A program made the translations under genes and the position numbers. From Candidatus Micrarchaeota archaeon (GTDB taxonomy: Archaea > Micrarchaeota > Micrarchaeia > Burarchaeales > Fermentimicrarchaeaceae), in NCBI GenBank assembly GCA_013425335.1, contig JACCLG010000050.1, positions 17,532 through 81,531 of the forward strand: a stretch of 64,000 bases of DNA. The letters are read 5' to 3'. Shown here piece after piece: positions 5,023-46,161 of this stretch (its first letter is position 1; the number at the start of each line of letters is the position of its first letter). Under the pieces are notes generated by a model. It was given only the letters and a program-made list of their open reading frames with translations, searched no databases and was not told the origin of the DNA.

Positions 5023-5403
5023 ATGGTCAATCCTAAGAAAGTTGCAGTGAAGACAACTGCGTTAGTCTTTGAATTCCTATCATTCCTTTCTGGTATAATC
5101 CTTGTGCTTTCGCTCTGCGCAGTTTTGGTCATGCTCATTTTCCCCTCGCAATACTTCTCAATTTTCAAGAATTATGGCAGGCAAGTCTTCCTTCAGGCCG
5201 GGGATTCGTGCGATGGGATGAGCGGCTCCAATATTTTTTTGCTTCCCCCTCTTGACATAAACCATCTTGACATGAACCAAATGGAGGAATACTGCATTGG
5301 GTGGGATAAAATCATTATGTTTATAGGTTCTGTGACGTTTATCCTAACCGTATTATTTGAGGAAATAATCAGGAAGAGATACTTGAAAATAGCTCAGGTG
5401 TAG
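5023..5403 (+). CDS. Possible small membrane protein (126 aa)
   Basis: ORF with two hydrophobic segments in an AT-richer intergenic gap; no homology recognised. Confidence 0.25.
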   Translation: MVNPKKVAVKTTALVFEFLSFLSGIILVLSLCAVLVMLIFPSQYFSIFKNYGRQVFLQAGDSCDGMSGSNIFLLPPLDINHLDMNQMEEYCIGWDKIIMFIGSVTFILTVLFEEIIRKRYLKIAQV

Positions 5404-6320
5404 CTGACCTTTACCCCGGCAGAATTGCTAAGGCTGAGAAAGTCCCTCATTGCATAGGTGATTCCCTGCCCCAGCGAGGAGAGGATTCCTCCGAATGGGT
5501 TTGTGCTGCCCATCTCGCATACTACAGGTTGATTCTTATATGACATATTGGCTAGGTTTGCTGCAGTTGTGAGCGCCAGTTTCTTATTGCCAATCTCATC
5601 AACAAGACCAACCTCTTTCGCCTGCCTCCCCGTAAGCACCCTCGCATCCAGAATCTCATTGAACTTCTGCTCGTTCAACTTGCCTTTCCTTCCCTCTTCA
5701 ACAACGGTCTTGAACTCATCAAAAATTTGGTTTATCATGGTCTGCATTATCTGCTTCTCCTTCTCTGTTGGGGGCCTCGTGTTTGTGCCCATGTCCTTGA
5801 GCTCTCCAGACTTGAATATTGTATAGTTTAAACCGAGCTTGTTGAACAGCCCGCTCATGTCCTCAAACGTTGTTGTAACTCCTATGCTGCCAGTCAAAGC
5901 GTCAGGCTCAGAAACGATGTAATCCGTAGGTGCGGATATGTAATAGGCGCCAGATGCAGCAACCTCCCTGAAATAGGCCACCTTGGGCTTCTTGATGTCT
6001 CTGACTGCTTCATATATCTCCCTGCTCGCTACAACAGAGCCTCCGGGCGAGTTGACCTCAAAAACTACCGCCTTGACGTTACCGTTGTTTTCTGCATTGT
6101 TTATTTGATTGACGATATCATCAGAGCCAATTGTCGGCGTCCCAAACAGCCCGCCGCTGGAAGTCTGCGTGCTTATCTCACCATTCACTTGGATTACCCC
6201 AACGCATTCAGTGGGTGTTGCGAGGTAATAAATGGCGTATACTGCCACTATTGTGCCGGCAACCATCAAAGCTCCTATGGCGACAAGTAGTATTGTTACA
6301 ACAAGTTTGTCAGTTTTCAT
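5394..6320 (-). CDS. sppA: Signal peptide peptidase SppA (S49 family)
   Basis: N-terminal TM; S49 motifs around NSPGG and ASGAYYIS; 308 aa, typical of the archaeal/36K type. Confidence 0.8.
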   Translation of the reverse strand: MKTDKLVVTILLVAIGALMVAGTIVAVYAIYYLATPTECVGVIQVNGEISTQTSSGGLFGTPTIGSDDIVNQINNAENNGNVKAVVFEVNSPGGSVVASREIYEAVRDIKKPKVAYFREVAASGAYYISAPTDYIVSEPDALTGSIGVTTTFEDMSGLFNKLGLNYTIFKSGELKDMGTNTRPPTEKEKQIMQTMINQIFDEFKTVVEEGRKGKLNEQKFNEILDARVLTGRQAKEVGLVDEIGNKKLALTTAANLANMSYKNQPVVCEMGSTNPFGGILSSLGQGITYAMRDFLSLSNSAGVKVSYT

Positions 6321-26753: not shown

Positions 26754-26838
26754 GGGCCGGTAGATCAATGGTAGATCGCTACCTTCGCATCTTCCGCGGA
26801 AAAGGTAGAGGCTGCGGGTTCGAATCCCGCCCGGTCCA
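26754..26838 (+). tRNA. tRNA-Ala (anticodon CGC) with 13-nt intron after position 37
   Basis: Acceptor stem GGGCCGG/CCGGTCC with the G3:U70 Ala identity pair, D-arm GATC/GATC, anticodon stem CTACC/GGTAG, loop TTCGCA, then insert 'tcttccgcggaaa'. T-arm GCGGG-TTCGAAT-CCCGC, discriminator A, no encoded CCA. Confidence 0.8.
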
Positions 26839-27850: not shown

Positions 27851-27935
27851 TTTGCTACTTGCGCAGGGAGGTTAGAAGGGACCGCCAGGTCCCTCTCTTG
27901 AAGGTTTAAATAGCAAAAGAGGCCTAATTTAGGGT

Positions 27936-28940
27936 ATGGAAAGATACAAGTTGCATGCTCCTTATGTAAACGCAAGGCCAATCGAACTGGAAATCACGGA
28001 GATGCAGGAAAGAAGGCAGGCAAGGGAAATTGCCGATTTGCTGGAACCGCTTCAGCTTGACAAAAACTCGCTGATTCTCAGAAAAGGGGCAAAGGCATGC
28101 GCGATTCCTCTGGAAGCAGCCAAGCAGCTCGGGGAGCTGGGAAACAGGGGGTTGTACCTTGGCGGAGCCGGGCCCTACGAGCTGAGAACCCTCGGAGTTG
28201 GGGATGCCCTCAACAGGAACGTCACTTGCGTCAGGGAGTTCGTCCTGCCTAATTCTGCCAATATACTGACCATCGGGGAATTTAAGAACATTGCAGTCGG
28301 CAGGGAGCAGAAGGCGCCATCAGTGCTCGACAAGTTTCTTGACGATGAAAGAGTATACAGAAGGACAATGATTGAGCTTGTGAAGGACATAGTTGACAAG
28401 GGAAAGAAGGAGGACATTGAGCTGCTCAACGAGTACAGGGGCAGATTCCGGGAGATATTCGGCGCCGTCACATTCCAAGATCTCACGGAAAGCCACTGGG
28501 AGATGATATCAAACCCTTACGTAGTAGCATACACCAAATATTACCTTGACAGGGTGAGGAGCAAACCGGGAGGCATCGTTGCCGACTTCCACATCCACCC
28601 AGGCTTGGAGAAAACCGCTCCCTCAAGGACGGACGCGTGGATTTTCGCAGGGCCCAGTCAGTTCTGCGAGTGGTCCGGCATCCTGCATGTGGACAGGCGC
28701 GAGCTGTGGGGGTCTTTCAGGCTGGATTTGAACAGCCTTTCCGCCTACTACTCAGACATGGAGGATGCGGAGTGGCTCCGCCATGCGGTTTCAGAGCTGA
28801 GCAAGGCATCGCTGCACAGCAGGGCTCTGACATATTTTGAGCTTCTTCTTTCGGGGAAAACAAAAATCGTGCGGGATTTCATGAAAACGCATTCCGCGGA
28901 TGTAATGACATACGGGCAGCTGGTTGAGAAGGCAGAATAG
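27936..28940 (+). CDS. Hypothetical protein with C-terminal JAB/MPN (JAMM)-like metalloprotease motif
   Basis: DFHIHPGLEKTAPSRTD resembles the JAMM motif HxHx7-8Sx2D; leaderless start after the conserved 'agaggcctaatttaggg' promoter motif. Confidence 0.5.
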   Translation: MERYKLHAPYVNARPIELEITEMQERRQAREIADLLEPLQLDKNSLILRKGAKACAIPLEAAKQLGELGNRGLYLGGAGPYELRTLGVGDALNRNVTCVREFVLPNSANILTIGEFKNIAVGREQKAPSVLDKFLDDERVYRRTMIELVKDIVDKGKKEDIELLNEYRGRFREIFGAVTFQDLTESHWEMISNPYVVAYTKYYLDRVRSKPGGIVADFHIHPGLEKTAPSRTDAWIFAGPSQFCEWSGILHVDRRELWGSFRLDLNSLSAYYSDMEDAEWLRHAVSELSKASLHSRALTYFELLLSGKTKIVRDFMKTHSADVMTYGQLVEKAE

Positions 28941-29407
28941 CCGGCCATGCCCGCGGTGAAAACATCAAAAGCATCAAAAGCAGGAAAATAAACCGCAGGT
29001 AAATCGGCAGCAAATCAGGTAAAATCGGTAAAAACATCAAAAAACTCGCTAATTTCAGTTCGGGTATAAAACAACTCGTATTCATTCGGTGAAACCGGCT
29101 GCTTCCTGCTGTATGCTGCCGTCTGAGCAGCATGTTTTTCAGTTTCACTGTTTCTGCCTCTCCGAAGAGAAACTGACTTAAACCTGCTCAGGCGTAAACC
29201 GCTTTTTCTGGCAGGAAATTCAGGAATCAGGAGTGAAACTGGCGGTTTTTCAGCTTTTTCTCATTTTCAGAGGTGCTGGACTGCGTCGTTTTCCGGCTTA
29301 TCCCGGTTTAGGCGCCTGTTTCACAGGCATTTTTGAATGGTATATTATACCTATTTTATTCTTGTCGGTCTACAGAAATCCAAGCGTTATTGTAAGTGTG
29401 ATTACTG
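28941..29407. repeat. ORF-free region with iteron-like short direct/inverted repeats
   Basis: 'gtgaaac(c/t)gg' at about 29090 and 29233 (direct) and about 29139 (inverted); 'catcaaaag' x2; 'aaatcgg' x3; inverted repeat gctgc...gcagc at about 29105-29130; composition atypical for the flanking DNA. Confidence 0.5.
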
Positions 29408-29623
29408 TTAAAAATTTACTCTTAATCTGTTTCCAAATTCGGAAATGAAAGCCAAGAATATACCAAATATCATAATAAAAAATCCTATGATATTACCAAT
29501 TATATTACCTGCTGTTAACATATAACCTAAGCCAACTAGGGATAGAATTGCTCCGATAAATGCAAGAGGTTTATCTGTTGCTAGCTTAACGATTATGTCA
29601 ACTTTATTATCTGACATAGTCAA
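29408..29623 (-). CDS. Small membrane protein (71 aa, 2 TM)
   Basis: Hydrophobic helices; lies in the AT-rich island. Confidence 0.35.
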   Translation of the reverse strand: MTMSDNKVDIIVKLATDKPLAFIGAILSLVGLGYMLTAGNIIGNIIGFFIMIFGIFLAFISEFGNRLRVNF

Positions 29624-29645
29624 TCACCTCTTTAATCAATAATAA

Positions 29646-30563
29646 CTATGAATTGCCAAATCCTTTCCACAGCACACCACATGTTGGAAAGCTAGTAAAA
29701 TTGATTGCAGTAGACTGTTCTGCCGGACTAAGTGGAAATTCCCACTTTGAGATTACCCTTAAATGTCTAATTTCATGTGGTTCTAAATCAATGCTCATAT
29801 ATTGCTTTCCATTAAGCATTATTACTACAGCTAAACCTGTATCCTTATCACAGTAACTATATCCACTCTGCGGTTCTATAACGTAACTCCTTATCTCCTC
29901 ATCTTCAAAATTTTTTATCGTATAGTCCGAAACTGCATAAATCGCATTATCTTGTAACCTAAAAAAACCTATTTTTACAGCAGGAATATTAGTTTCGCAT
30001 ACATTTATAGAAGTGGACTGGTAATTCCTTCCAATAAGAGTAGCATCACAACTCATCTTGTTTAAGTCGACCTCCTGCCCGATATACACGTCCAAACTTG
30101 TGCTTTTAACTTTGAAAGCGTTAGTGTCAATATCAAGATATATTGTATTAGTCATATTATTTCCACCGTTTGAATAATACCAGCTTTCTTGTGTAAACAC
30201 TTTCACATAAGGGTTCTCTTCTACTCTTAGGAGACTGAGATAAGCATTCCCAGGAAGCTCTACGGAAAAATTATCCGACCTCTCAAAAAAAGGTAGATTG
30301 GGAAATAATGCCGTATCGATATCGTAAGTAAGTTTCGAAATTTTGAAATATTCTATATCGTACCCCCCATTCCCATTTGCCACCGGTCCTCCGTATAAAT
30401 ACATGGGTTGGCTTTTGACATCAGAAATTCTAGGTGAAAAAATCGGTTGGATTGCTTGATTGGATATAAAATAAGCCAAGACGGTTATAACTAAACCCAC
30501 AATGGCCTTAATAATTAAACTTTGCGTATCCATTTTCTTTGCCACAAGTTCACCATTATACAT
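29646..30563 (-). CDS. Membrane-anchored/secreted hypothetical protein (305 aa)
   Basis: N-terminal TM then a beta-rich Asn/Tyr-rich domain; AT-rich codon usage. Confidence 0.5.
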   Translation of the reverse strand: MYNGELVAKKMDTQSLIIKAIVGLVITVLAYFISNQAIQPIFSPRISDVKSQPMYLYGGPVANGNGGYDIEYFKISKLTYDIDTALFPNLPFFERSDNFSVELPGNAYLSLLRVEENPYVKVFTQESWYYSNGGNNMTNTIYLDIDTNAFKVKSTSLDVYIGQEVDLNKMSCDATLIGRNYQSTSINVCETNIPAVKIGFFRLQDNAIYAVSDYTIKNFEDEEIRSYVIEPQSGYSYCDKDTGLAVVIMLNGKQYMSIDLEPHEIRHLRVISKWEFPLSPAEQSTAINFTSFPTCGVLWKGFGNS

Positions 30564-30661
30564 TTTATCTCTGTAAGATTATAAATCTACTCCATCACTG
30601 GAAAGGTACCCCTTCGTGAAGTTTATAAACCATTAATACGAAGGATAATATAGGTGGATTT

Positions 30662-31507
30662 GTGGCAGAAGAGAAAGCAAAAATTACGGGCCTACTAAAT
30701 AAACTCTACGTAAAAGACTGCATAGAATTCATGCGTGAGTTACCGGAAAAATGTATAGACGTTATTGTAACTTCACCTCCTTATAACATCGGCAAAGATT
30801 ATTCAGTTTATAATGATGACAAGACTAGACAGGGATACCTTGACTGGATGGAAAAGGTAGCGGTTGGAAGTAAAAGAGTTCTAAAGGAGAATGGTTCTTT
30901 CTTCTTAAATGTTGGTGGCAAACCATCTGATCTTGTAATACCGTATGATGTTGAAAACCGTTTTAGGAGGCATTTTATTTTGCAGAATGATATAATCTGG
31001 GTTAAATCTATAGCAATAACTAAAGAAGACGTAGGGAAGAGTAATGGACTGGACCATGATGTTTTGGTAGGGCACTATAAACCGATCCAAAGCAGCCGTT
31101 TTCTGAATAATTGCCACGAGAACATCTTTCACTTTACAAAAGAGGGTAAAACAAGCCTCCATAAACTTTCTATCGGTGTCCCATATCAATACAAATCAAA
31201 TATAGCACGCTGGGGCAAAAAACAGGATATACGAGACAGAGGCGATGTTTGGTTTATCCCTTATGAGACGATACAGGAGCGTCGTCCGCATCCTGCTGTT
31301 TTTCCAAAGAAACTCCCTCTATTATGTGTAAAATTACATGGAGTTAAGAAGGATATGATTGTTTATGACCCATTTGTTGGAATAGGAACTACTGCTTTAG
31401 CTTGTTTAGACTTAAAAGTAAACTACTTAGGTACTGATGTAGACCATAATTACATCAAAATTGCAAATGAAAGAATTGAGGAAATAAAGGCACAATTAAA
31501 GCTTTGA
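30662..31507 (+). CDS. DNA methyltransferase, beta-class amino-MTase (N4-cytosine or N6-adenine)
   Basis: Motif IV TSPPY near the N-terminus and motif I DPFVGIGTT near the C-terminus, which is the circularly permuted beta-class order. Confidence 0.8.
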   Translation: MAEEKAKITGLLNKLYVKDCIEFMRELPEKCIDVIVTSPPYNIGKDYSVYNDDKTRQGYLDWMEKVAVGSKRVLKENGSFFLNVGGKPSDLVIPYDVENRFRRHFILQNDIIWVKSIAITKEDVGKSNGLDHDVLVGHYKPIQSSRFLNNCHENIFHFTKEGKTSLHKLSIGVPYQYKSNIARWGKKQDIRDRGDVWFIPYETIQERRPHPAVFPKKLPLLCVKLHGVKKDMIVYDPFVGIGTTALACLDLKVNYLGTDVDHNYIKIANERIEEIKAQLKL

Positions 31508-32002
31508 TTGTGATCCAGCCATACTGCTTAAAAGTTGGAGTGCTTTTTCACGAGAAATTTTTGTAGTAGTGCCCAATTCTCCAGCTTTCCACCACGAACG
31601 TACTTGTTCTGAAGTTATTATCCAAAAAGGAACATCCGGGAATTTTTCTATGTCCGACACTATATATCCCTTAATCTCTTTGAGTTTTACTAAAAATCCT
31701 TCTTCCTCAAAAGAACGCTTCGAACCAACCATATAACTGGGGGAAAAATATATTCCACCCTTGCTAATACTTCTGACTTCCCACTTTCCACCTTCTCTAT
31801 CTAAGAGGTCAAAACCTGCTCCTTCACTTGAGGCAAGCTTCCCATGCAAAACCTCATAAGCAAGCCGTCTTTCCAATAGAAATGAAACACGGCGCCCATC
31901 TGTAAAATAAAGGCGAACATCATCCTTGCCTATTTTTAATGCCTTAGCAATTTCTTCAATATTCCATTTGAGATAACCTTCGATTTTGCCCATGACAATC
32001 AC
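31496..32002 (-). CDS. Putative restriction endonuclease (PD-(D/E)xK-like) partnered with the methyltransferase
   Basis: 168 aa; candidate catalytic pattern FDLLD...EVRS; tail-to-tail 12-nt overlap with the MTase gene, typical of type II R-M pairs. Confidence 0.35.
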   Translation of the reverse strand: MIVMGKIEGYLKWNIEEIAKALKIGKDDVRLYFTDGRRVSFLLERRLAYEVLHGKLASSEGAGFDLLDREGGKWEVRSISKGGIYFSPSYMVGSKRSFEEEGFLVKLKEIKGYIVSDIEKFPDVPFWIITSEQVRSWWKAGELGTTTKISREKALQLLSSMAGSQSKL

Positions 32003-32010
32003 CGAGAGAC

Positions 32011-33975
32011 TCAGCTTTTATCTTTAAAATCATCGATTAAGCCATTTATATTACTAAACAGAGAGTCATTTATAACACTAAGCAGTTTTGTGAAAGACCG
32101 TTTTAAGTTATTTGGATAATTGGTAAAGTCATATCCAATTTGTTTAGCTAATTCTGAGCTTTCTTTCTTTTTTTGTTTATCATTTGATATATGCGTCAGA
32201 TGTCTACGGATACCCCTAAGCAATTTAACAGAATTTTCAATCTCATTTTGCTGCTTTTCACTTGCGTTTAGATACTTCGAAAATTCTTTTAAAGCTTCAA
32301 CATCCCCGCTGCAACTTTTGCCTAACTTATCTTCTATTTCTTTTTTATTTAAGTTTTCAATAATTAATTGATTTAGTAAATCAACACCCTGATCAAATTC
32401 TAAAGGCGTTTGTACCTCTTTCGGGAAATAAACAATTTTAACCACTTTATCAGTCGGTATATCATGAAATAATCCAAAATTAAGTTTATTGTTACTAATA
32501 CCATTTGTCTCATTAATGCGTCCGATTATTGAAATCAGCGTCAATTCAGTAAGCGTACTACTTACCAGATCCTTACTATTCCCTACTAGTCTTTTTGAAA
32601 GCTCATCAGTTGCCTTGTTAATTTCTCTGAATGTTAGGCATTGACCATACTTTTTCTCACTAAATTCTTCATCTCTAATACTTTCGAGTTTAGTTTCAAA
32701 ATCCTCTTTCGATGGTTTTCTTTTGCGAATTAAAGCAAGAATAACTGGCAGTATACTAAGAAATACATTTATGCCCTGTCTTTTTGTAATTACATAGTTA
32801 TCCCTATCGTTCCACTGCTTTTCAAAACAACTCTTTATAGCGCTTAGATAGTTGATTAGTATTACCACTATCTCTTTTTCATCACGAGACTTCAATTCCC
32901 TCTCCATAAGTTTTGGAAGAACATAAAATTGACTATTACCAATCCACTTCTTAGTCTGCCATTCATGTATCCTAATTTTTTTATATAGAGGTGAATTCGG
33001 CATTTCATTTAATCTATGGACTACCACAGCAGTTCTTCCTTTAGTATCATCTATTTTCTGCAATCTAAATAATAACCAATTACGCAAAGTTGCGGGGACT
33101 CTTTTTTGATTATCATTAATCTCTGTGAAAAGAGATATTTTCCTAGTAGATTCTAACTCTTCGAAGCCAGTAATAATAATCTTAAATTTATCAGGGGTTT
33201 TTTGCTTCTTGCATTCTTTAAAACCGTATAATCTATGCTGACCGTCTATTACTTCAACCGATTGCTCTACTAATGGAATTTCGAGATAGCCTTGTTCAAA
33301 TACTCCTTTCTTAGTTGTTGTAAAATTAACTCGTTTAGTGAAGTTGACTATAATGTTATTCGCAAGAATAGCTTTTGGTTTGTCAAGAAAAGAACCTATC
33401 TCTTTTAGTCTTTTTGGTTTTAAATATCGTTGATAACCTAGCGGCGTATTCTCTTCATCTCGGTCAACTTTGGCGATTTTGAGTAAATCTGTCGCTCTCA
33501 TAGCAAATATGTACATTTTTTCTTTTCCTTGCTTGACTCGAATCGATGGTACTGATATTAACTGAGGAGGGATTTCAAAAAATTTCTCTATCAAAATTGA
33601 TGCATAATCTTTCTTGTAAAGTTTCGAATTTTGCCAATAACTCCCCAACATAGGTTCGTCCCATATTATTATTCCTCTACTTTTTGCCCATTCTTTATTT
33701 TTTGAGCTAACCCTCTTAGAATCGAAAACTAAAAGGCCACATATCTTGTTTATTTTCTTTCTATCTAATTCGTGGACTATGCCATCTAATTCCCGAACAC
33801 AAGTTTTAACATTACGCCCCTTAGCCATCGTACATTCAATTATTAGTTTAAACTCTCTGAAACTTGCAACCACATCAATTTCTTTATCAGCTAACTCAAT
33901 TTTGGTTTTTACTTTAAATCCTGCATTTCTAAAAAGTTTGGCTACCTTTTTTTCAGTTCGATTAAGTCTTGGCAT
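32011..33975 (-). CDS. Fusion protein: N-terminal Mrr-like PD-(D/E)xK domain + DGQHR (DndB-like, ParB/Srx superfamily) domain
   Basis: N-terminal restriction-endonuclease-like fold (IDVVA...IIECT...K); DGQHR motif EVIDGQHRLYGF; 654 aa. Confidence 0.6.
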   Translation of the reverse strand: MPRLNRTEKKVAKLFRNAGFKVKTKIELADKEIDVVASFREFKLIIECTMAKGRNVKTCVRELDGIVHELDRKKINKICGLLVFDSKRVSSKNKEWAKSRGIIIWDEPMLGSYWQNSKLYKKDYASILIEKFFEIPPQLISVPSIRVKQGKEKMYIFAMRATDLLKIAKVDRDEENTPLGYQRYLKPKRLKEIGSFLDKPKAILANNIIVNFTKRVNFTTTKKGVFEQGYLEIPLVEQSVEVIDGQHRLYGFKECKKQKTPDKFKIIITGFEELESTRKISLFTEINDNQKRVPATLRNWLLFRLQKIDDTKGRTAVVVHRLNEMPNSPLYKKIRIHEWQTKKWIGNSQFYVLPKLMERELKSRDEKEIVVILINYLSAIKSCFEKQWNDRDNYVITKRQGINVFLSILPVILALIRKRKPSKEDFETKLESIRDEEFSEKKYGQCLTFREINKATDELSKRLVGNSKDLVSSTLTELTLISIIGRINETNGISNNKLNFGLFHDIPTDKVVKIVYFPKEVQTPLEFDQGVDLLNQLIIENLNKKEIEDKLGKSCSGDVEALKEFSKYLNASEKQQNEIENSVKLLRGIRRHLTHISNDKQKKKESSELAKQIGYDFTNYPNNLKRSFTKLLSVINDSLFSNINGLIDDFKDKS

Positions 33976-34063
33976 ACACTCCCTCGGATTACAGCAATAC
34001 GATTATTATTTGTGTTGTATATTAAGCTTTTTATTACGATACTTGCTTCATAACATATAACGT

Positions 34064-34324
34064 TCACACGCTCACGTACGGAGCATATTCATCCATGTGA
34101 CTGAATTTCACCCTATCCTGCTGTTCTTTCTCCAGTTCCATTTTTATGTGTGACTCCACGAAGCTCTTCACGTAAGGATGTTCGTATAACACTATAACTT
34201 CATTAAATCCGTCCTCAAAATCTTTCTTTATATTAGTCAGGGCGTTCTTGTATTCAAAAGTAACTTCAACTGCAATTCTTTTCTTATGGGGGCTTTTTTC
34301 AGTAGGAAATACCGCAACATCCAC
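34064..34324 (-). CDS. Hypothetical protein (86 aa)
   Basis: ORF only. Confidence 0.3.
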   Translation of the reverse strand: MDVAVFPTEKSPHKKRIAVEVTFEYKNALTNIKKDFEDGFNEVIVLYEHPYVKSFVESHIKMELEKEQQDRVKFSHMDEYAPYVSV

Positions 34325-34348
34325 TCTCCCGCCTCTTCCTCTCGAACA

Positions 34349-35050
34349 TTACTCCTCCAGCTCCTTAACCACCTTCACTATCCCCTCAAACCTCTCAATT
34401 GTGAAATCCGCAACATTCTCCTCCTCGGAATACCTCTGGCATCCATACTTTGCCAGGCAGGTTAGGAGCCCTGCTTTCTTTGCTCCAATTATGTCTCTCT
34501 CAGGATTATCTCCAACAAACAAAGCCTCCCTCGGAGACACTCCCAGCAGGTGAACCACCCTGAGGAAAGGCTGTTTCGACGGCTTCAACTCCTTTGTATC
34601 CTCATATGTCACAACAACGTCAAAAAGATGGTCCAGTCCTGAGAGGATGAGCCTCTGCCACGCCTTCTCCCTGGGCGCATCTGAGACTATCCCAAGCTTG
34701 TAGCTCTGCTTAAGCTTCTTCAGAGTGCCCACAACTTTCGGCCTCGGTCTCAGCAAAGCGTATTTCTTCTTCTCATATGCGATTATTGCAGCCTGCTTCG
34801 CATGCTCGTGCAGATGCGGGCCCAGAACATAGCCTGAGAGAAGCTCCTCAAACGTTCTCTGGTACTCTATTCCTCTTGTTTCGTATATTGCGAATATCTT
34901 CCCGTAAAGCTCCCTCTCCCCTGCCTTCACCCCTGCTTCCCGGATGGCTTTGGCTGCAGCAAGCGCGCTCTCCCTCTTGAAGCCTGAGAAGTCAAGCAAT
35001 GTGTTGTCCAGGTCAAAAACAATTGCCTTAATCATATAAAATCCACTCAT
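34349..35050 (-). CDS. HAD-superfamily hydrolase (subfamily IA)
   Basis: Motif I IVFDLDNTL, motif III K, motif IV GDNPERDI; GC-rich host-like composition. Confidence 0.75.
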   Translation of the reverse strand: MSGFYMIKAIVFDLDNTLLDFSGFKRESALAAAKAIREAGVKAGERELYGKIFAIYETRGIEYQRTFEELLSGYVLGPHLHEHAKQAAIIAYEKKKYALLRPRPKVVGTLKKLKQSYKLGIVSDAPREKAWQRLILSGLDHLFDVVVTYEDTKELKPSKQPFLRVVHLLGVSPREALFVGDNPERDIIGAKKAGLLTCLAKYGCQRYSEEENVADFTIERFEGIVKVVKELEE

Positions 35051-35096: not shown

Positions 35097-36089
35097 TCAG
35101 CTATCCCTATTCATATCTTTCCCAAATTCTTTAGATACTAATTCACGAAACGTTGTCTTAAATGAAACTTGGTGCTTTGGTCCACCCATAGTAATCTCCC
35201 TAAAAAGTTTTCGTGGCTCACCATCGATAACATATACTTTATGCTCCCAATTTAGACTAGAATCCCATCCTTCTTCTTTTACCCATTTTATATACTCGTT
35301 TTTAGCTTTGCAACCTCTCCAGCTTTCTTTAGCAGTTTCGATTTTCGTTTCTTTAACTTTACAGATATGAGTTATTGCACTGGGTAAACCATTTTTTCTA
35401 TGCGTTTCGATTACTGCTATATACAAAGCATCAGCAGCACCAGTATTTTGTACTATTATATTTTTTTCTTTTAATAGTTTGAAAAACATAGGCTTAGTAT
35501 ATACCGCAAGTACTTCAACAACATCTTCAATACGTTGTTCATCCATCTTTTTTATACTATTCATCATATCACCTATCCATACATTAAACATCTTCGTCAT
35601 TTTCTTTGTTGATTTTTCTGATAAGTCTATTAAATACTGCCAAGAATATGTTAAAAATTCTGTTTTTTCTAATTTCAACTCGCTTTGGATACTCTCAGTC
35701 TCTTCAGAAGTCAGATCTCGTTTTGTCACATATACCAAACGTATATTTGGAAAGTAGGCTCTTTGTTTGAGCAGGAAATCTGCATAATTCTTAAGCTGAG
35801 AAACGTATTCAGGTTTGTGTTCAATAATTTTTGATTCTATAATCACCATAAACTCATTTTGCTTGCGTATCATCAGATCAGTTATTCCATAAGGTTCAAT
35901 AGATTCTTGAGTTCTTATTCTAACGTCTCTGATTTTGGAATTGGGTAACTTAAGCTCTTTTAAGAATTCAGTAAAAACCTGTTGATCACTATGCAGAATG
36001 AAACCAAAAGAAATAGATAAACGATTTTCTGTTCGAGGATTTTTCGGCAATCTCGCTTGCACAAAGTCAAATATATTATCAATATTCAC
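35097..36089 (-). CDS. PD-(D/E)xK nuclease-family protein (330 aa)
   Basis: Motif ITDLMI...VIIESKI (D...ExK); AT-rich. Confidence 0.45.
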   Translation of the reverse strand: MNIDNIFDFVQARLPKNPRTENRLSISFGFILHSDQQVFTEFLKELKLPNSKIRDVRIRTQESIEPYGITDLMIRKQNEFMVIIESKIIEHKPEYVSQLKNYADFLLKQRAYFPNIRLVYVTKRDLTSEETESIQSELKLEKTEFLTYSWQYLIDLSEKSTKKMTKMFNVWIGDMMNSIKKMDEQRIEDVVEVLAVYTKPMFFKLLKEKNIIVQNTGAADALYIAVIETHRKNGLPSAITHICKVKETKIETAKESWRGCKAKNEYIKWVKEEGWDSSLNWEHKVYVIDGEPRKLFREITMGGPKHQVSFKTTFRELVSKEFGKDMNRDS

Positions 36090-37490: not shown

Positions 37491-38116
37491 TTATATCCCT
37501 CCAGCAGAAGCCTGCCCCAGAACGTCTGGGAGTACTTCTTTTCATCCTGGTTGAATGATACAAACCCAATGCTCTCAAGGTTGTTCAAATGGCGGAAAAT
37601 GCGGGGGTAATCCTTCCTATCCCCCTTCAAATCATCCACAATCTCTTTCAGCTTCCTGTCCTCTTTCACTGCTTCCAGAACCTTCTTCTGCGAGCTGCTC
37701 AGGACAAATGGAGCCGATATAGGGGGCAGCAGATCAGTTTTGAACCTATCAGCCTTCCTTATTGTTACAATGAGGTGCATTTTCCTCTTGACAAAGAAGG
37801 TTGCGTAGAGCAAAGCCAGCGCGATGTGCCTCTCCCCTCCCCCTATGTGGATGTAAAGCTCGTCATCTTTGCCTGTTGAATTGAGGATGCGGATGCACTC
37901 TCTGACTGCCTTCTCAAACGGTTCGTCTGTTATGAACTCCTCTCTGGTGCTTATCAATGTCTTTATCCTTTCGATTGTATCCCTGACCTTCTCCCTCTCC
38001 GAGCGGTCTTTTGAGTGAATCACAATGGCCCTGTCTGCCCCCGTTTTAACCGCATTCCTTAATGACTCTTCAAAAACCTTGGGGGTAAACCCCACCGACA
38101 TGACGTGAATCCGCAT
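37487..38116 (-). CDS. Csa3-like CARF + winged-HTH regulator
   Basis: N-terminal CARF-like Rossmann start MRIHVMSVGFTPKVF and HIGGGERHIALALL segment; C-terminal wHTH; 4-nt ATGA overlap with the RNase J-like gene. Confidence 0.5.
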   Translation of the reverse strand: MRIHVMSVGFTPKVFEESLRNAVKTGADRAIVIHSKDRSEREKVRDTIERIKTLISTREEFITDEPFEKAVRECIRILNSTGKDDELYIHIGGGERHIALALLYATFFVKRKMHLIVTIRKADRFKTDLLPPISAPFVLSSSQKKVLEAVKEDRKLKEIVDDLKGDRKDYPRIFRHLNNLESIGFVSFNQDEKKYSQTFWGRLLLEGYK

Positions 38117-38223
38117 GGATAGCTATTATCTGTGAAAGTATTTAAAGTTAATGTTTGCTTTTATAAAGCAACTATTTAATAAAAAGAGCAAACATTTAAA
38201 TAGAACTTCCTTCATAATTAAGG

Positions 38224-38409
38224 GTGGGTGATAGTTTGAACGGGAAATTGGTTAGAAGGAGAAGGAAGTGCGGGGGTGCCATCACGGTGGCTACGGAGGG
38301 AATGGTCATAGAAGTGGGCTCGGATAACATCAGGGAGTCTGAGCGCATCGTGAAGAGCATGCTGGAGAGTCTCAAAGAGCCGAAAAAGCAGGTAACCTAT
38401 ATCCGGTGA
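38224..38409 (+). CDS. Small hypothetical protein (61 aa)
   Basis: ORF only. Confidence 0.25.
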   Translation: MGDSLNGKLVRRRRKCGGAITVATEGMVIEVGSDNIRESERIVKSMLESLKEPKKQVTYIR

Positions 38410-38442
38410 TTGGATGTACGAGGAATATGTGGAGGTGGGGAA

Positions 38443-38739
38443 ATGTTAATAAAAGTACCAAAGCAATTCAAAGTAAAAATTCTGAAAAATCCGCGTGAGA
38501 ATAAGCAAAAAAGAGAAGATGAACTTCAGATGGTAGAACCTTTAGGTGACGAAACAAAGAATCTTTTCGACAAATACGATGATTGGAACTTCATAATTAT
38601 AAAATGGAAAAAAGACTCGGAGGAAACGGACATTAGGTATGCAACTAACATCGTGGAAAATGTGCCTTTTCCAGAAGTCTTGGGTATACTAGAGAACTCA
38701 AAGGGCCCTGTGATGGAGATAATATTTGGCGGAGATTAA
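38443..38739 (+). CDS. Small hypothetical protein (98 aa)
   Basis: ATG 38443 preceded by a strong SD 'ggaggtgggg'; the ORF track extends to TTG 38410. Confidence 0.4.
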   Translation: MLIKVPKQFKVKILKNPRENKQKREDELQMVEPLGDETKNLFDKYDDWNFIIIKWKKDSEETDIRYATNIVENVPFPEVLGILENSKGPVMEIIFGGD

Positions 38740-38908
38740 ATACCTAGGAATAATCTTTTATATAGAAAATCCGAATAATGCTTCAGGAAAGTGTGTAGCC
38801 TGTGACTGAGGTTATCAGTGCGATAAGGTCAACAGCGTCCGAGGCAAAACGACTTTTACGACGTAAAATTGGATTAACTTAAGATTGTATTTTTTAATTA
38901 GTCATTAA

Positions 38909-39475
38909 TCATCCAAATTTAAAGCTTGTTATGACGCTCTCAAAGACTGGTTTATATCTATCATAATCAGTTGGGCGAGTTGAGCAGGTGATTGTATAAA
39001 GATGCTCATTTCCTATCAAACTTACTTGCTGGACTTTGTAGTCCTGTCCTCCTCTGTTATAAGTTATGACGAACTCATGCCCCGGCATTCCGTTTAATGT
39101 CCTGTTCTCAAAAGATACAATGGTAATGCTGTTGTTTTTATAGAGTTCTATACTAGAAGCTCCCATATTATTTAAAAACTCACTAAAAGTTTCGTAGACT
39201 GGCACTGGCTGCTCTTCCCGGAGTATGCTGCATTTTGAACTGAAACCGGCTTCTTGAGGGGAAGTGAAGGTAACTTTCGCACCTCCGCTCTCTTCAACCT
39301 GCCACCCATCTGGGTAGATAAGCGAAAAACCGTAGTCATCGGACCCCCAGCAGTTTGTTACCCCCCTCTTCTTGCATTGTTCAGATTGAGTTCCTTTAGG
39401 TTGCCCCCCAGAACATCCGTAAATCAATAAGGTGAATAGCAACATGGCAATAATCTTCTTTTTCACTTTTACCAC
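38909..39475 (-). CDS. Putative lipoprotein (188 aa)
   Basis: Signal peptide with lipobox-like LIYGC; downstream of promoter cassette copy B. Confidence 0.5.
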   Translation of the reverse strand: MVKVKKKIIAMLLFTLLIYGCSGGQPKGTQSEQCKKRGVTNCWGSDDYGFSLIYPDGWQVEESGGAKVTFTSPQEAGFSSKCSILREEQPVPVYETFSEFLNNMGASSIELYKNNSITIVSFENRTLNGMPGHEFVITYNRGGQDYKVQQVSLIGNEHLYTITCSTRPTDYDRYKPVFESVITSFKFG

Positions 39476-41973: not shown

Positions 41974-43374
41974 TCAACCCATCCTCTCAGGAAGCTTCGG
42001 TGCCTTCCCTGTCAGCTCGTCCATATCGGTTATGCCTGTTTTCAGCTTATCTGTATCTATCCTGAACATTCTTCTTTCCTTGGTGTTTATCGCGACCAAC
42101 TTTCCATCTATACCTATGCCCGGCATCCAATCCTTTTTGGCGCACTTCTCTTCAAATTTCCTCAACTTTTCTTCTCCATTTTTGATTCTTTCAGATATGC
42201 CCTTAACATTATCATCAGCCAGTTCGTTGCAGAGAGTAATATAATCCCTGAAACCTTCTGCTTTTCTTGCGTAGTTTGCCTCCTCCTTATAGTGCTCAAG
42301 CAGGCTCCTCGGCGGAGAGCTGAACTTTATGACAACTGACCTGCCCTCCCCTGTTTCCTCTTTCTCAACCGAGTTCAGTATTATTGTCTTGCCTGCGCCT
42401 GCAGAGCCTCCTCCATACGAGTGGTTTCTATCTTGTTTTAAAGCAGCTGCATTCTTATAATCCTCAAAAAAAACCTGCGGAGTTGGAGTGATTACGAAAA
42501 ATGATAACTCTAGAGCAGCATATGCCCGGATCACATTGTCATTGCTGCTTAGCGAATTAGCCGCCGCAGACTGGGCTCTTCCCTCTTTATATCTCAAATC
42601 AGCCCTACGGAGTTCTGGATCCAGGATAAATTTTGAGAACTCCAGATTCTCTTTTGTTTTTTCATCCAATGGGTTCTTCCATAACTCCTTATCATACAAA
42701 TGAACTAGGAACACCGTGGCATCAGTATAAAATTTAGTCTTTTGAACTTCGTATTCATGAGCTATCTCTTCCCGACTGGCACCAGTAAGTTCGGAATAAA
42801 ACTCAACAATCTTCGATGGATCTTTGAATAGAGGTAAAAGTATCCTGTCTACTTCTTTTATCTTCTTGCCGAATGGCTCTTCAATATGGCTAATTTCATG
42901 CGGTATTTGAGAGACGGCATGAAGAATATCTAACCCTTCTTCAAACAGGATAGTAGAACCTGCTGTTCCTAAATAACCAGTTTTTGCGATGGATATATCC
43001 AATCTCTTTTTAAAATTTTCCTCTGTGTAATTGGATAAAAACTTCAATGTATGTCCATCATCTACAACTTTTTCAGAAAGATTGTTTTTCTCTGCAAAAA
43101 CTCGGTTTAATCCCTCTCCTACCTCAACTACCCTTTTTAGTATATCCCTGTCTCCTCTTATAAATGAATCCAGGAGAGCTTGTGGATTCCTAGTTTTCTG
43201 GAGAACATCCTGAGCATCGATTAATCCCGGGAGTGTTTTATTTAAAATGTCGCAAGATTGATAAAAAAACTCTCTAACTCCTTCGCTTAATACTAGCTCG
43301 CTTCTTTTTGTGGCTGTTGCTGCCATGCCTAGAATTATGCCTTTCTTGTTATTTAAGCTTGCTTTGTCTAACAA
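41974..43374 (-). CDS. Hypothetical protein with HExxH motif (ImmA/IrrE-like?) and C-terminal P-loop NTPase motif
   Basis: PHEISHIEE; Walker A GGGSAGAGKT; 466 aa. Confidence 0.45.
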   Translation of the reverse strand: MLDKASLNNKKGIILGMAATATKRSELVLSEGVREFFYQSCDILNKTLPGLIDAQDVLQKTRNPQALLDSFIRGDRDILKRVVEVGEGLNRVFAEKNNLSEKVVDDGHTLKFLSNYTEENFKKRLDISIAKTGYLGTAGSTILFEEGLDILHAVSQIPHEISHIEEPFGKKIKEVDRILLPLFKDPSKIVEFYSELTGASREEIAHEYEVQKTKFYTDATVFLVHLYDKELWKNPLDEKTKENLEFSKFILDPELRRADLRYKEGRAQSAAANSLSSNDNVIRAYAALELSFFVITPTPQVFFEDYKNAAALKQDRNHSYGGGSAGAGKTIILNSVEKEETGEGRSVVIKFSSPPRSLLEHYKEEANYARKAEGFRDYITLCNELADDNVKGISERIKNGEEKLRKFEEKCAKKDWMPGIGIDGKLVAINTKERRMFRIDTDKLKTGITDMDELTGKAPKLPERMG

Positions 43375-43380
43375 AATGAA

Positions 43381-43869
43381 TTACACTAGACCTGGTTGCT
43401 TATTGAATTTTTCAATCTGGTCAATGCCTTCAGGAGTCAGTTTATAAATCCACTGAATTTTTTCCTTCCCCACAAACTGCATTGCCAAGTAACCTGCCTT
43501 GATTAACTGTGCTAACTGGCTCTTCAGCTCATCCTCAACAAGCGATGGGCGAATTATAGTTCCTGTTTCCTCCACTATCTCTTCAACGCGTATAATCCTG
43601 CTCTCAAAAGTGGTTACCTTGCTCGCAGGTTGTACAAGAGGCTGTTTTGATATCTCCTCTCTTACATCCTGGAGTAGATTCATTTCTATAATGTTCAGTG
43701 CCGGACTTTTACCAGACTTTTGTATATTATAGATAGTGTCAAGTATCTTCCTTGCCTCAGGAGTGAGAGACGTAGGGGGTTTCTCTACAACATCAATATT
43801 ACGAAGCACATCCCTCATCGCAGAGTTCTTTTCAGTGAAAACCACAAAATCACCAATTAATTTCTGCAT
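43381..43869 (-). CDS. Winged-helix transcriptional regulator (162 aa)
   Basis: C-terminal wHTH (LAQLIKAGYLAMQFVGKEKIQWIYKLTPEG); first gene of the minus-strand operon. Confidence 0.5.
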   Translation of the reverse strand: MQKLIGDFVVFTEKNSAMRDVLRNIDVVEKPPTSLTPEARKILDTIYNIQKSGKSPALNIIEMNLLQDVREEISKQPLVQPASKVTTFESRIIRVEEIVEETGTIIRPSLVEDELKSQLAQLIKAGYLAMQFVGKEKIQWIYKLTPEGIDQIEKFNKQPGLV

Positions 43870-44730
43870 TTTTGAGTATAATAACCTTGCCCCGGATTAG
43901 GAATCGGATTTTTTGACGTCGCAGTCCATACCATTATATACGGCGGACCGCCATATAACTACGTAACTTCTTTTCTCTTTATTGAAATCTAGTTGCGGTT
44001 GGTGGAAACAATGGGACTATTCTACTCTCCTCGTCAGATGAGGATATTATTGGATATGGATAAAAATTCGAAGCGAGACGAGGTTGCTGAGGAAGAGCAG
44101 GACCAGTCAGAGTAGAGTTAAGCTTATTAAATATAAGGAATGGAAGAATCTACATTTTTGTCTTAACTTGCTTTGGCTTGAGAATCAGACTACGCATATT
44201 GCCTGTAATGCACTTTGCCCCCGTGCCTCTCCTGAGCCTTTCTCCTTCTCGTCTGTGTCCTGCACGTTGTCCTTCTCCTCTTTATCCTTGATTTCAACAA
44301 TACATCACCCTGCCCAATCTATTCTTCATCATAAATTCTGATCTGCTTCTTTTTGCCGTACCTTTCCATATACGCATGGTACTCCCTGTATATGCATTCT
44401 CTTCTTATCGAAGTCACTTAAATCACCATTGATATTTTTTTATTCCTATTCTTGTTTAATGGCAATATGCTAAACGAAATGACATTACTGCCATGCTCCA
44501 TCTTGCCTATCACTTTCACATAGAAATAGGAGAACTAACAATAATATGGAATCAGGAGTATATAAATCAATGTGTGCCGAACTTGCTTTGGTATACGCCC
44601 CTCAACTGCTTCTGCGAGCAGCGTCCGAGGGCAAGACATATTCTTCGATGGTGAATTGAACAATTTAAGCACTCTTGAGCGCTTACGAAAGTTCAGCAAA
44701 GATTAAATAACGTAGAAGTCAAAAAATAAG

Positions 44731-45876
44731 ATGACTGAGGCGAATAAGATGCTTAGCGCGGAAGAGATACTCGAATTAAAAAGAGAACATCACAGCTTAG
44801 AAAAAAGAATGGAAGAAATCGAAAAGAACCAACGTTCTACTATTGTGAAACTTTCGGAAAGGCTAAAAGAATTAATGGCGGACATAGGGTCAGTACGAGA
44901 GAAAGAAAAAAGCATGTGGAATCCAGACCTTAGCACACGGATAAAACTTTCCAAGAAAGGCATCAAACTCTCCAAGGAATTAAATTATTTTGTGATGGAT
45001 GCGGCGAGCGAGTTTGAAAAGGGCAACATCCCGGAAGATGCGGGAAAGAGGTTTATATCGCTTGCAAAGCTCATCAAAGGTAACAGGATGGATCTTGCAA
45101 AAAAGGAATTTGAGTATTTTGAAGAAATCATCGAATTAGGCAAAACATACGAAAAAAGCGAGGAGGAAATGAAAGAACAAGACAGAATACTCAAAAGAGA
45201 GCAGGCCAGGGTAGAAGCAATATTGGCAGAAATGTCTGAGCTGGAAAAAGGAACAGTTGATTTGGGAAAGGTCCTCAGCTACGAGAACCTATTGAAAAAT
45301 CTGGGAAAACTGGAAAAACTTAGAGAAACATATATCCATTCCCTCATTTCAGAACCAGTAGCAGAATTGCTTGAAGATATTGAAAAATATTCTCTGAAAG
45401 ATTATTGCCAAGCTCTTCCCGGAAAAGGGGAAATGGCGGAGTTAAAAGAGTTCTTTTCGGAATATCCTGCATTTGGAAAATGCAATGTCAATCAGCTTTG
45501 CGAGTTCTTCGAATACAGCGAAAAAAAGCTTTCACATATCTGTCCTGAAACTTCTAGATTCAGGAGATTAGTGGTGGGAAACAAAAATTTATTTGAAACA
45601 ATTCTTTCACTTGGGAAGACGACCTTCCTGGCAATGGATGATGCGAATGAAAAAGTTATGGACTTTTATGCCGAAAGGATCGAAGGTGCGCAAGAGATTG
45701 TTGAACAAATAGGACAGTTGAGAAAAGAAAAATATTCTTATAAAGAAGAATATGAAAAAAATAAAAAGATTGAAAAAACAAAGGAAGAGCTTTCAAAATA
45801 TTCAAAAAATGGATTGGAGGCAGAGTTGAGAGACATCGAACATCTTCTCGAACTTTTGCATTCCAATCGCCCCTGA
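44731..45876 (+). CDS. Coiled-coil hypothetical protein (381 aa)
   Basis: Lys/Glu-rich heptad-like sequence; AT-rich. Confidence 0.45.
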   Translation: MTEANKMLSAEEILELKREHHSLEKRMEEIEKNQRSTIVKLSERLKELMADIGSVREKEKSMWNPDLSTRIKLSKKGIKLSKELNYFVMDAASEFEKGNIPEDAGKRFISLAKLIKGNRMDLAKKEFEYFEEIIELGKTYEKSEEEMKEQDRILKREQARVEAILAEMSELEKGTVDLGKVLSYENLLKNLGKLEKLRETYIHSLISEPVAELLEDIEKYSLKDYCQALPGKGEMAELKEFFSEYPAFGKCNVNQLCEFFEYSEKKLSHICPETSRFRRLVVGNKNLFETILSLGKTTFLAMDDANEKVMDFYAERIEGAQEIVEQIGQLRKEKYSYKEEYEKNKKIEKTKEELSKYSKNGLEAELRDIEHLLELLHSNRP

Positions 45877-46161
45877 TTTTGCGAAGTAAATTGAACTAAT
45901 CTAAGCTTGCCACAAAACCGCCACTTAACTTCCGCGTTGTGGGTGTAATAACCTTATTCCGACACTTAACATTCTGCTTTAAATACTTGAAAAGGCATAA
46001 TTTAGAGTGGTGAACTTACGGCAAACAAATGGCTGGTAACAGGCTTATTCGTCCTGCTCTCCGCTACGCTAGCCTCCTTCGCGTTTGTTGGGACAAGGCA
46101 GTTCCCGGTAAAAGGCATCGGTCTGGCGAAGTGCGAGGTTAACAACTCATATACGGTAAAT

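Follow-up and report, generated by a model that had tools for sequence, protein, structure and literature searches.

What does a large fusion of a nuclease and a DGQHR domain do beside a restriction-modification (R-M) pair in an archaeal genome? We addressed this question in a 64,000-nucleotide (nt) stretch of Candidatus Micrarchaeota archaeon (contig JACCLG010000050.1, positions 17,532 to 81,531; hereafter the window), in which an AT-rich islet encodes a beta-class DNA methyltransferase, a 168-amino-acid (aa) nuclease and a 654-aa protein that joins a PD-(D/E)xK nuclease domain to a DGQHR domain. Our favoured reading, to which we give an even chance, is that the islet is a two-layer defence locus in which the 654-aa protein would be a nucleoside triphosphate (NTP)-gated nuclease effector, reliant on the neighbouring methyltransferase for self-protection. 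The R-M pair is routine; the value of the locus lies in the family of the 654-aa protein, which comprises thousands of clusters and has a strikingly regular linkage to DNA modification. New here are a quantified neighbourhood rule for this fusion family, the recurrence of the family as the third gene in unrelated R-M systems, and a divergent archaeal (DPANN) member wired to a PvuII-like canonical type II system. The features that carry the argument are the following, in window coordinates.

32011..33975, minus strand: 654-aa protein, PD-(D/E)xK domain, DGQHR domain and helical C-terminal region (profiles, AlphaFold2 (AF2), alignment)
33577..33975, minus strand: its N-terminal PD-(D/E)xK (Mrr/AF1548-like) domain, residues 1-133 (hidden Markov model (HMM), PADLOC, AF2, Foldseek)
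32671..33567, minus strand: its DGQHR domain (DndB superfamily, ParB/Srx fold), residues 137-435 (TIGR03187, PF14072)
33424-33435, 33232-33246 and 33106-33129, minus strand: the DGQHR-domain motifs YQR, DGQHR (residues 244-248) and FxxIN..Q
32011..32670, minus strand: its C-terminal all-helical region, residues 436-654, about 220 residues (AF2, alignment)
31496..32002, minus strand: predicted PvuII-fold type II restriction endonuclease, 168 aa (165 aa in NCBI; PADLOC REase_II, AF2/Foldseek)
30662..31507, plus strand: beta-class DNA amino-methyltransferase, 281 aa, probably N4-cytosine-specific (PF01555, PADLOC MTase_II)
30770-30784, plus strand: methyltransferase motif IV (TSPPY), residues 37-41, in beta-class order
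31367-31393, plus strand: methyltransferase motif I (DPFVGIGTT), residues 236-244, in beta-class order

The 654-aa protein is 100% identical to the NCBI entry 'DGQHR domain-containing protein [Candidatus Micrarchaeota archaeon]'. Its central domain matches TIGR03187 at 1.1e-48 (166.4 bits against a cut-off of 58.85), PF14072 at 2.5e-21 (76.5 bits against 29.1) and the HMM of its own family at 1.7e-49, and shows a weak fold match to CDP-bound ParB (6sdk). Q182, R183, D244-R248, F283 and N287 are invariant in the alignment of its relatives, and the ParB-type domain keeps, at the level of sequence, all the motifs of the nucleotide pocket. The N-terminal domain matches the Mrr-like nuclease of ZorD in PADLOC at 7.9e-9 and, over residues 17-115, the family N-terminal HMM built from 144 full-length representatives at 1.3e-8. 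Its AF2 model has a predicted local distance difference test (pLDDT) score of 80-93 and retrieves AF1548 (1y88), the small subunit of R.BspD6I, the nuclease domains of Card1/Can2/Cdn1, and NucS in Foldseek. The candidate catalytic residues are E8, D34 and E47, with K52 near. The fusion of an Mrr-like nuclease to a DGQHR domain in 654 aa, proposed in an initial annotation made from the letters of the window, is thus borne out by profiles. PADLOC matches of the whole protein were limited to DpdB, DndB and the ZorD nuclease, and a PDB sequence search returned noise only. The C-terminal region is helical in the AF2 model with a pLDDT below 50, and its IRRHLTH segment (residues 589-595, 32191-32211), of the form Rx4H, aligns onto the 'iRN...H' motif of the family; the region may be a degenerate HEPN domain. 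It gave no match to PDC-M34B or HEPN_Swt1, three C-terminal HMMs scored it within the distribution of shuffled sequences, and the claim of a HEPN domain in this protein was dropped. We regard the protein as a predicted divergent member of its family, with HEPN unproven.

To define that family, a word-indexed search yielded 26 relatives, whose alignment was turned into a profile for an exhaustive search of 50%-identity cluster representatives. The 26 relatives are 23-35% identical to the 654-aa protein in local BLAST segments and 19-25% over the full alignment, and have a common layout, in which an E...D...E-C-K nuclease motif is followed by YQR / IDGQHRLYG / FxxIN..Q and, in the C-terminal part, by RNxxxH. 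The profile retrieved 9,536 cluster representatives at E ≤ 1e-3 and 1,700 at E ≤ 1e-30. Among the best 150 hits listed, mostly of 720-790 aa, nearly all cover almost the whole profile, and their consensus again shows E...D...ECK, DGQHR and RNxxxH. The C-terminal domain of the family gives recurrent, mostly sub-threshold matches to HEPN_Swt1, and the PADLOC candidate PDC-M34B clearly matches the C-terminus of closer relatives (P0004, 1.9e-17; P0003, 1.1e-15). The predicted architecture is therefore, from motifs and profiles, PD-(D/E)xK + DGQHR + Swt1-like HEPN, in a very large family of bacteria and archaea. The fusion is not unique to this locus: comparative genomics in 2013 described ParB/DGQHR domains fused to nucleases or HEPN and noted their linkage to R-M systems (PMC3632139, PMC3710099).

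We measured this linkage in a census of 80 loci from GTDB species genomes, 58 of which encode three-domain members. A methyltransferase gene of the D12 (most), N6_N4 or MT-A70 class lies within 200 base pairs (bp) of the family gene in 44 of these 58 loci; in 39 the two genes overlap or stand at most 20 bp apart, and nearly all pairs are co-directional. Among homologues looked up by exact sequence, six of seven have a methyltransferase gene beside the fusion gene. The class of the partner mostly follows the relatedness of the effector: higher-scoring relatives with a methyltransferase neighbour mostly have N6_N4 (L002, L014, L019, L021, L024; D12 in L022, L029, L031), and the distant clade of about 760 aa mostly has D12, a split that suggests co-evolution of effector and methyltransferase. 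Most family members have the methyltransferase as neighbour alone, with no other nuclease, as in L005 and L009, where the other neighbours are metabolic genes. At six loci or more, the fusion gene stands directly beside a complete R-M pair, and the nucleases of these pairs are mutually unrelated:

L024: methyltransferase, BglII-family nuclease, fusion
L060: D12 methyltransferase, DpnII nuclease, fusion, N6_N4 methyltransferase
L022: D12 methyltransferase, MutH-like nuclease, fusion
L087: fusion, HNH nuclease, D12 methyltransferase
L007/L008: type III Mod, Res, fusion

The window locus, with its methyltransferase of probable N4-methylcytosine (m4C) type, PvuII-like nuclease and fusion, is a further case of this pattern, and the nuclease gene beside the fusion gene is comparable to those of L024, L060, L022 and L087. 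On the minus strand, 8 nt separate the end of the 654-aa gene from the start of the 168-aa gene, which suggests co-transcription; the methyltransferase gene lies 504 bp from the 654-aa gene, convergent to it, with the small nuclease gene between them.

Several other arrangements were seen around family members. At the locus of the closest relative of the 654-aa protein (P0002, 27% identical; L002, genes from 1832-2488 (plus strand) to 5360-5956 (minus strand)), a Cas4-like PDDEXK_1 gene lies 25 bp upstream of P0002 and a beta-class DPPY methyltransferase gene 24 bp downstream, and a convergent 198-aa open reading frame (ORF) of no assigned family overlaps the end of the methyltransferase gene, a layout much as in the window. 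Family genes without a methyltransferase neighbour mostly stand beside genes for a radical-SAM protein (about 460-556 aa) and a GHKL/HATPase_c_3 ATPase (about 450-515 aa), as in L010, L047, L048, L051, L062, L072, L078 and L081, and in L133, which is plasmid pNL1 of Novosphingobium aromaticivorans (NC_009426.1, 118850-125348). On pNL1, an operon of a short DGQHR protein, a radical-SAM protein and an ATP-binding protein is convergent with a 769-aa DGQHR fusion. These loci look like an undescribed modification-plus-effector system. A form of about 500 aa, nuclease + DGQHR without HEPN, occurs in Bipolaricaulota/Acetothermia metagenome-assembled genomes (L013, L015, L016, L017, L018); at all five loci the next gene, overlapping or abutting, encodes a calcineurin-like phosphoesterase of 256-279 aa (Metallophos, 5.4e-22), not a methyltransferase. 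A crude motif scan, too weak for a claim, found no C5 methyltransferases among the partners. We also followed a lead to PD-Lambda-5, of which PADLOC model B matches a family-linked D12 methyltransferase, and rejected it, since none of ten family proteins matches model A.

Are the methyltransferase and the small nuclease of the window then partners of the 654-aa protein or of each other? The methyltransferase has TSPPY ahead of the FxGxG-type motif DPFVGIGTT, which is the beta-class order, and matches PF01555 at 2.9e-45 and the REBASE-derived PADLOC model MTase_II (PDLC03295) at 1.1e-104, in agreement with its first assignment as a beta-class amino-methyltransferase. Its best solved relatives are N4-cytosine methyltransferases (8s9n, 1.4e-20), and M.PvuII (1boo) matches at 8e-11. 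SPPY is the usual m4C signature, so that an m4C type is likely and the enzyme probably marks m4C. The 168-aa gene and the methyltransferase gene are convergent, with an overlap of exactly 12 nt, and the 168-aa product matches PADLOC REase_II (PDLC03550) at 9e-52; the type II R-M-like arrangement noticed at the outset is thus confirmed. As the protein has no Pfam match and PDB sequence searches gave noise only, its fold was taken from AF2 (pLDDT 81.6) and Foldseek, in which the top PDB matches are all PvuII, followed by the PvuII-like NhoI and Eco15I. The match to PvuII is a moderate one (E 2.4e-4, template modelling (TM) score 0.43-0.46, root-mean-square deviation about 7 Å). The candidate active site is D65-X9-E75-x-R77, invariant in 27 sequences, with the same spacing as the PvuII residues D58/E68/K70. 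E44, R45, R46, E50 and E60 are also invariant in this alignment.

This nuclease has 757 homologues. The matches listed are 65-77% identical, are nearly all annotated 'hypothetical' and come from DPANN archaea, CPR bacteria, Nitrospirae, Elusimicrobia, Dehalococcoidia and others, a spread across phyla that is expected of a horizontally mobile R-M gene; tblastn of the nuclease against plasmids gave no match. An N6_N4 methyltransferase gene adjoins the homologue in every metagenome locus with available flank, and the pairing is repeated in L092, L093, L099, L100 and L101. The layout is convergent, as in the window, in L099 and L101, with overlapping genes in L101 also; in L092, L093 and L100 (the form of about 420 aa) the two genes are co-directional. 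None of the 11 other loci carrying a homologue of the nuclease has a DGQHR gene. The window methyltransferase is closest to the nuclease-linked methyltransferases (258 bits to that of L101), and DGQHR-linked ones score only 95 and 55 bits. The methyltransferase and the 168-aa nuclease are thus clearly cognate to each other. Since homologues of the nuclease cross phyla, always beside a beta-class methyltransferase, the two genes are, as predicted from their sequences, a complete, ordinary, mobile and self-sufficient PvuII-like type II R-M system, and the initial annotation's view of the methyltransferase as part of an uncharacterised module needs changing.

On this basis, we propose that the first layer of the locus would be this R-M system: the methyltransferase would mark host DNA, probably with m4C, and the 168-aa protein, a homodimer-type PD-(D/E)xK nuclease, would cut unmarked DNA (type IIP). 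The second layer would be the 654-aa protein, predicted to be transcribed just upstream of the nuclease gene and to act as a second nuclease effector. Its ParB-like DGQHR domain would bind NTP and DNA, acting as a switch or clamp, and would permit the N-terminal PD-(D/E)xK domain to cleave DNA without the host mark; this gating is proposed by analogy with ParB, DndB, DpdB, SspE and GmrSD. DndB-like proteins bind ATP and GTP (bioRxiv 10.1101/2025.10.10.680097). In typical family members, the C-terminal HEPN domain would add an RNase as abortive back-up. The single methyltransferase of the islet would shield the genome from both nucleases. In most genomes the family would supply the 'R' of an R-M-like module of two genes; alongside a canonical R, it would act as a second nuclease. 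The domain identities, the R-M pairing, the size of the family and its neighbourhood rule are what the data show; gating by nucleotides, a response to methylation, a methyltransferase shared by the two nucleases and any activity on RNA are what we infer. A nuclease that is co-operonic, and often overlapping, with amino-methyltransferase genes is most simply held off by methylation, as in R-M systems. The opposite logic had been suggested at first, that of an uncharacterised modification-dependent module. We found no experimentally characterised relative, which agrees with its first part; modification dependence is probably wrong in view of the methyltransferase linkage of 44 of 58 members, since a type IV enzyme would be suicidal beside the methyltransferase that makes its substrate.

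Several points weigh against our proposal. The methyltransferase is cognate to the small PvuII-like nuclease, and the absence of a DGQHR gene from the 11 other loci with that nuclease means that the adjacency seen here could be recent and non-functional. The main problem is that one effector family would have to fit the specificities of many unrelated methyltransferases. The family of the 168-aa nuclease has the invariant R77 at the position of the usual PD-(D/E)xK catalytic lysine, and in the 654-aa protein the catalytic K of ExK, present in most relatives, is replaced by T49, so that its nuclease may be weakened. The C-terminal profile score of the 654-aa protein is noise, as 41 of 493 shuffled C-termini score as high. 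Finally, literature searches found no experimental study of the PD-(D/E)xK + DGQHR (+HEPN) architecture.

A broader reading, which we think unlikely, sees the family as a reader-effector of universal use, nucleotide-gated and able to join many unrelated DNA-modification modules: three amino-methyltransferase classes, type II and type III R-M pairs, radical-SAM + GHKL-ATPase loci and calcineurin-like phosphoesterases. Such an effector would sense, with little regard to sequence, either how DNA is modified or that the primary system has failed, possibly as a ParB-like sliding clamp. The 654-aa protein would then be a third, cooperating component of the PvuII-like R-M system and no bystander.

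The problem of specificity matching also keeps alive a second alternative, to which we give a low probability, namely that the 654-aa protein ignores methylation and is a PrrC-like guard. Contact with the R-M proteins, or the level of nucleotides, would keep it inactive, and it would fire as a suicidal DNase/RNase once a virus disables restriction, as an abortive second line. A guard needs no sequence specificity of its own, which would explain how one family fits many methyltransferases; in the family, a HEPN RNase domain lies next to an NTP-binding domain, the family is embedded in complete R-M operons of at least five unrelated types, and exactly this role was proposed, in a survey of HEPN domains, for HEPN proteins encoded within R-M operons (PMC3710099). 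However, most family members have a methyltransferase alone and no nuclease to guard (L005 and L009, for example), HEPN is not demonstrable in the window protein, and a conserved PD-(D/E)xK domain whose gene overlaps that of a methyltransferase has the look of a primary R-M pair.

It is decidedly improbable that the 654-aa protein is an independent type IV nuclease, a chance neighbour in a defence islet that attacks foreign DNA carrying another modification in the manner of GmrSD, SspE and BrxU. Defence genes do cluster in islands, the cognate nuclease-methyltransferase pair is found elsewhere without the DGQHR gene, and the ParB-like DUF262 domain of GmrSD has the QR, DGQxR and FxxxN motifs in common with DGQHR domains (PMC4619093). 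The tight operonic coupling to amino-methyltransferases that runs through the family (gap of at most 20 bp or overlap in 39 of 58) is, however, not what one would expect of type IV enzymes. The protein has no DUF262 or DUF1524 Pfam match, and its gene stops 8 nt short of the nuclease gene on the strand that they share, which suggests co-transcription. Most improbable of all is a DndB-like regulator with a degenerate nuclease domain, whose nucleotide-modulated DNA binding near the R-M promoters would control the methyltransferase and nuclease genes and do the job of a C-protein: the dnd operon is repressed by the DNA binder DndB, which ATP modulates (PMC4507180; summarised in PMC10853773), every known context of a DGQHR protein includes DNA-modification machinery, T replaces the ExK lysine in the window protein and no C-protein gene is seen in the islet, but E, D and E of the nuclease motif are retained in a confidently predicted fold, the full E...D...ECK and HEPN Rx4H motifs of the family consensus are hard to explain for a pure regulator, and the DndB equivalog model gives only 19.6 bits against a 328-bit cut-off.

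If our favoured reading of NTP-gated, methylation-sensitive nucleases is true, the family is a large and overlooked class of restriction enzymes built on the ParB fold; if the proteins guard R-M systems, it is an equally large overlooked class of back-up effectors. Either outcome would take the ParB nucleotide switch past its known uses in DNA segregation and type IV restriction.

How did the three genes come to stand in this genome? They lie in an islet that, together with its smaller genes, is laid out as follows.

29400..34330, no strand: AT-rich accessory islet, GC content 0.349, both junctions present in the independent assembly L001
29408..29623, minus strand: 71-aa protein with two hydrophobic segments, GC 0.296
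29646..30563, minus strand: 305-aa protein of no known family, one N-terminal hydrophobic anchor (about residues 11-39)
34064..34324, minus strand: 86-aa ORF, same strand as the 654-aa gene and 88 nt upstream of it, GC 0.395

No other 4.9-kb stretch of the window has a GC content as low as that of the islet, which lies about 6 standard deviations under the rest (windows of the same size outside the region, 0.473 ± 0.020, minimum 0.409). GC drops from about 0.50-0.53 to 0.30-0.39 over 29.3-34.35 kb, with an onset near 29.33 kb; the intergenic segment 28941-29330 is nearer normal. The figure of about 35% over 29.4-34.3 kb in the initial annotation was therefore accurate, and all the genes that it listed were recovered in place. 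The islet and its two flanks also occur in L001 (7.6 kb), an independent Logan assembly of run SRR12594517; as this assembly spans both junctions, the locus is not a binning chimera. The islet is small, foreign in composition and horizontally acquired. The ten ORFs scanned from 27.9 to 37.5 kb gave no match to an integrase family, in line with the initial annotation, and att-like direct repeats were looked for on both sides of the islet, none convincing.

Among the remaining genes of the islet, a membrane-anchored 305-aa protein and small transmembrane proteins had been predicted, and hydrophobic segments agree, with one in the 305-aa and two in the 71-aa protein. The former has no significant family match, has a homologue among the fetched loci only in L001, and may lie outside the defence module. 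The 86-aa ORF, between a HAD hydrolase gene and the 654-aa gene, begins 'MDVAVF...IAVEVTFEYK', a stretch similar to the D...E-x-(T/K) strands in the core of a nuclease; the ORF had no match in the family libraries and no detectable relative outside the contig. That it is a remnant or duplicate of a nuclease was rejected, as it has no similarity to either neighbouring nuclease. Family-library scans found no C-protein gene in the islet.

On the left, the islet is flanked by a 334-aa gene of unassigned function (27906-28941), whose only relative, on the JGI metagenome contig L103 (1874-2908), is 84% identical, and 86.6% at the level of DNA. That gene alone is common to both contigs: homology stops sharply at both of its ends, and the neighbours are wholly different on both sides, so that it may be mobile itself or placed in a hypervariable region. 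A tRNA-Ala gene had been placed near the island. The tRNA gene at 26754-26838 (plus strand, 85 nt, with an intron) is called tRNA-Lys(CTT) by ARAGORN, against that assignment; read directly, it has a G3·U70 pair and, given a 13-nt intron at the canonical 37/38 site, CGC at positions 34-36, which favour alanine. We find tRNA-Ala(CGC) plausible and favour it over tRNA-Lys(CTT) on this reading of the letters. On the right, the HAD hydrolase gene (34349-35050), of normal GC (0.499), separates the islet from a second AT-rich patch (GC 0.326), which encodes a 330-aa protein (35097-36089, minus strand) with weak PDDEXK_4, NucS-C and Cas4 matches and no relative in the PDB. This patch may be a separate insertion of another nuclease gene. 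GC is also lowered (0.38-0.39) at 38001-39000 and 43001-46000 of the window.

How does the locus compare with known systems? With the PvuII R-M system it has in common a small nuclease (about 160 aa) whose predicted fold matches PvuII best, a beta-class SPPY methyltransferase partner that also matches M.PvuII (1boo, 8e-11) and the D-X9-E-x-(K/R) spacing. It differs in that the window nuclease lacks sequence-level similarity to PvuII and has the invariant R77 for the catalytic K, and in that the locus is without a C-protein gene and has convergent genes with a 12-nt overlap.

The 654-aa protein resembles DndB and DpdB in its DGQHR/ParB-Srx superfamily domain, with QR, DGQHR and FxxxN motifs, and in being encoded beside DNA-modification genes. 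The link to Dnd loci that had been drawn from the DGQHR motif thus stands at the level of the superfamily and goes no further, as both equivalogs are far below their cut-offs (DndB, TIGR03233, 19.6 bits against 328; DpdB, NF041060, 105.5 bits against 300). The family libraries found no dnd or dpd genes among the ten proteins scanned between 27.9 and 37.5 kb, and the 654-aa protein adds an N-terminal PD-(D/E)xK domain and a C-terminal region and has an amino-methyltransferase as partner. By these profiles, it is predicted to be neither DndB nor DpdB.

PrrC and RloC, the anticodon nucleases of type I R-M loci, offer a working analogy only, in that an NTP-binding domain and a HEPN-type RNase occur together inside R-M operons (PMC3710099). 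In contrast to them, the fusion family has a ParB-type, not an ABC-type, NTPase and an extra DNA nuclease domain, and most of its members are without an R-M nuclease to guard. In GmrSD, SspE and BrxU, which act in defence, a DNA nuclease is joined to a ParB-like domain that binds NTP and has a DGQxR motif (PMC4619093). Their nuclease is a C-terminal DUF1524 HNH domain, whereas that of the 654-aa protein is an N-terminal PD-(D/E)xK domain, with no DUF262 or DUF1524 match, and a family co-operonic with methyltransferases implies blocking by modification, which is the opposite logic. The family that includes the 654-aa protein is that of the surveyed Swt1-like HEPN domains fused to ParB (PMC3710099) and ParB/DGQHR + nuclease fusions (PMC3632139), known from computational surveys only; within it, the window member is shorter (654 against about 760 aa) and has its methyltransferase beyond a canonical nuclease gene.

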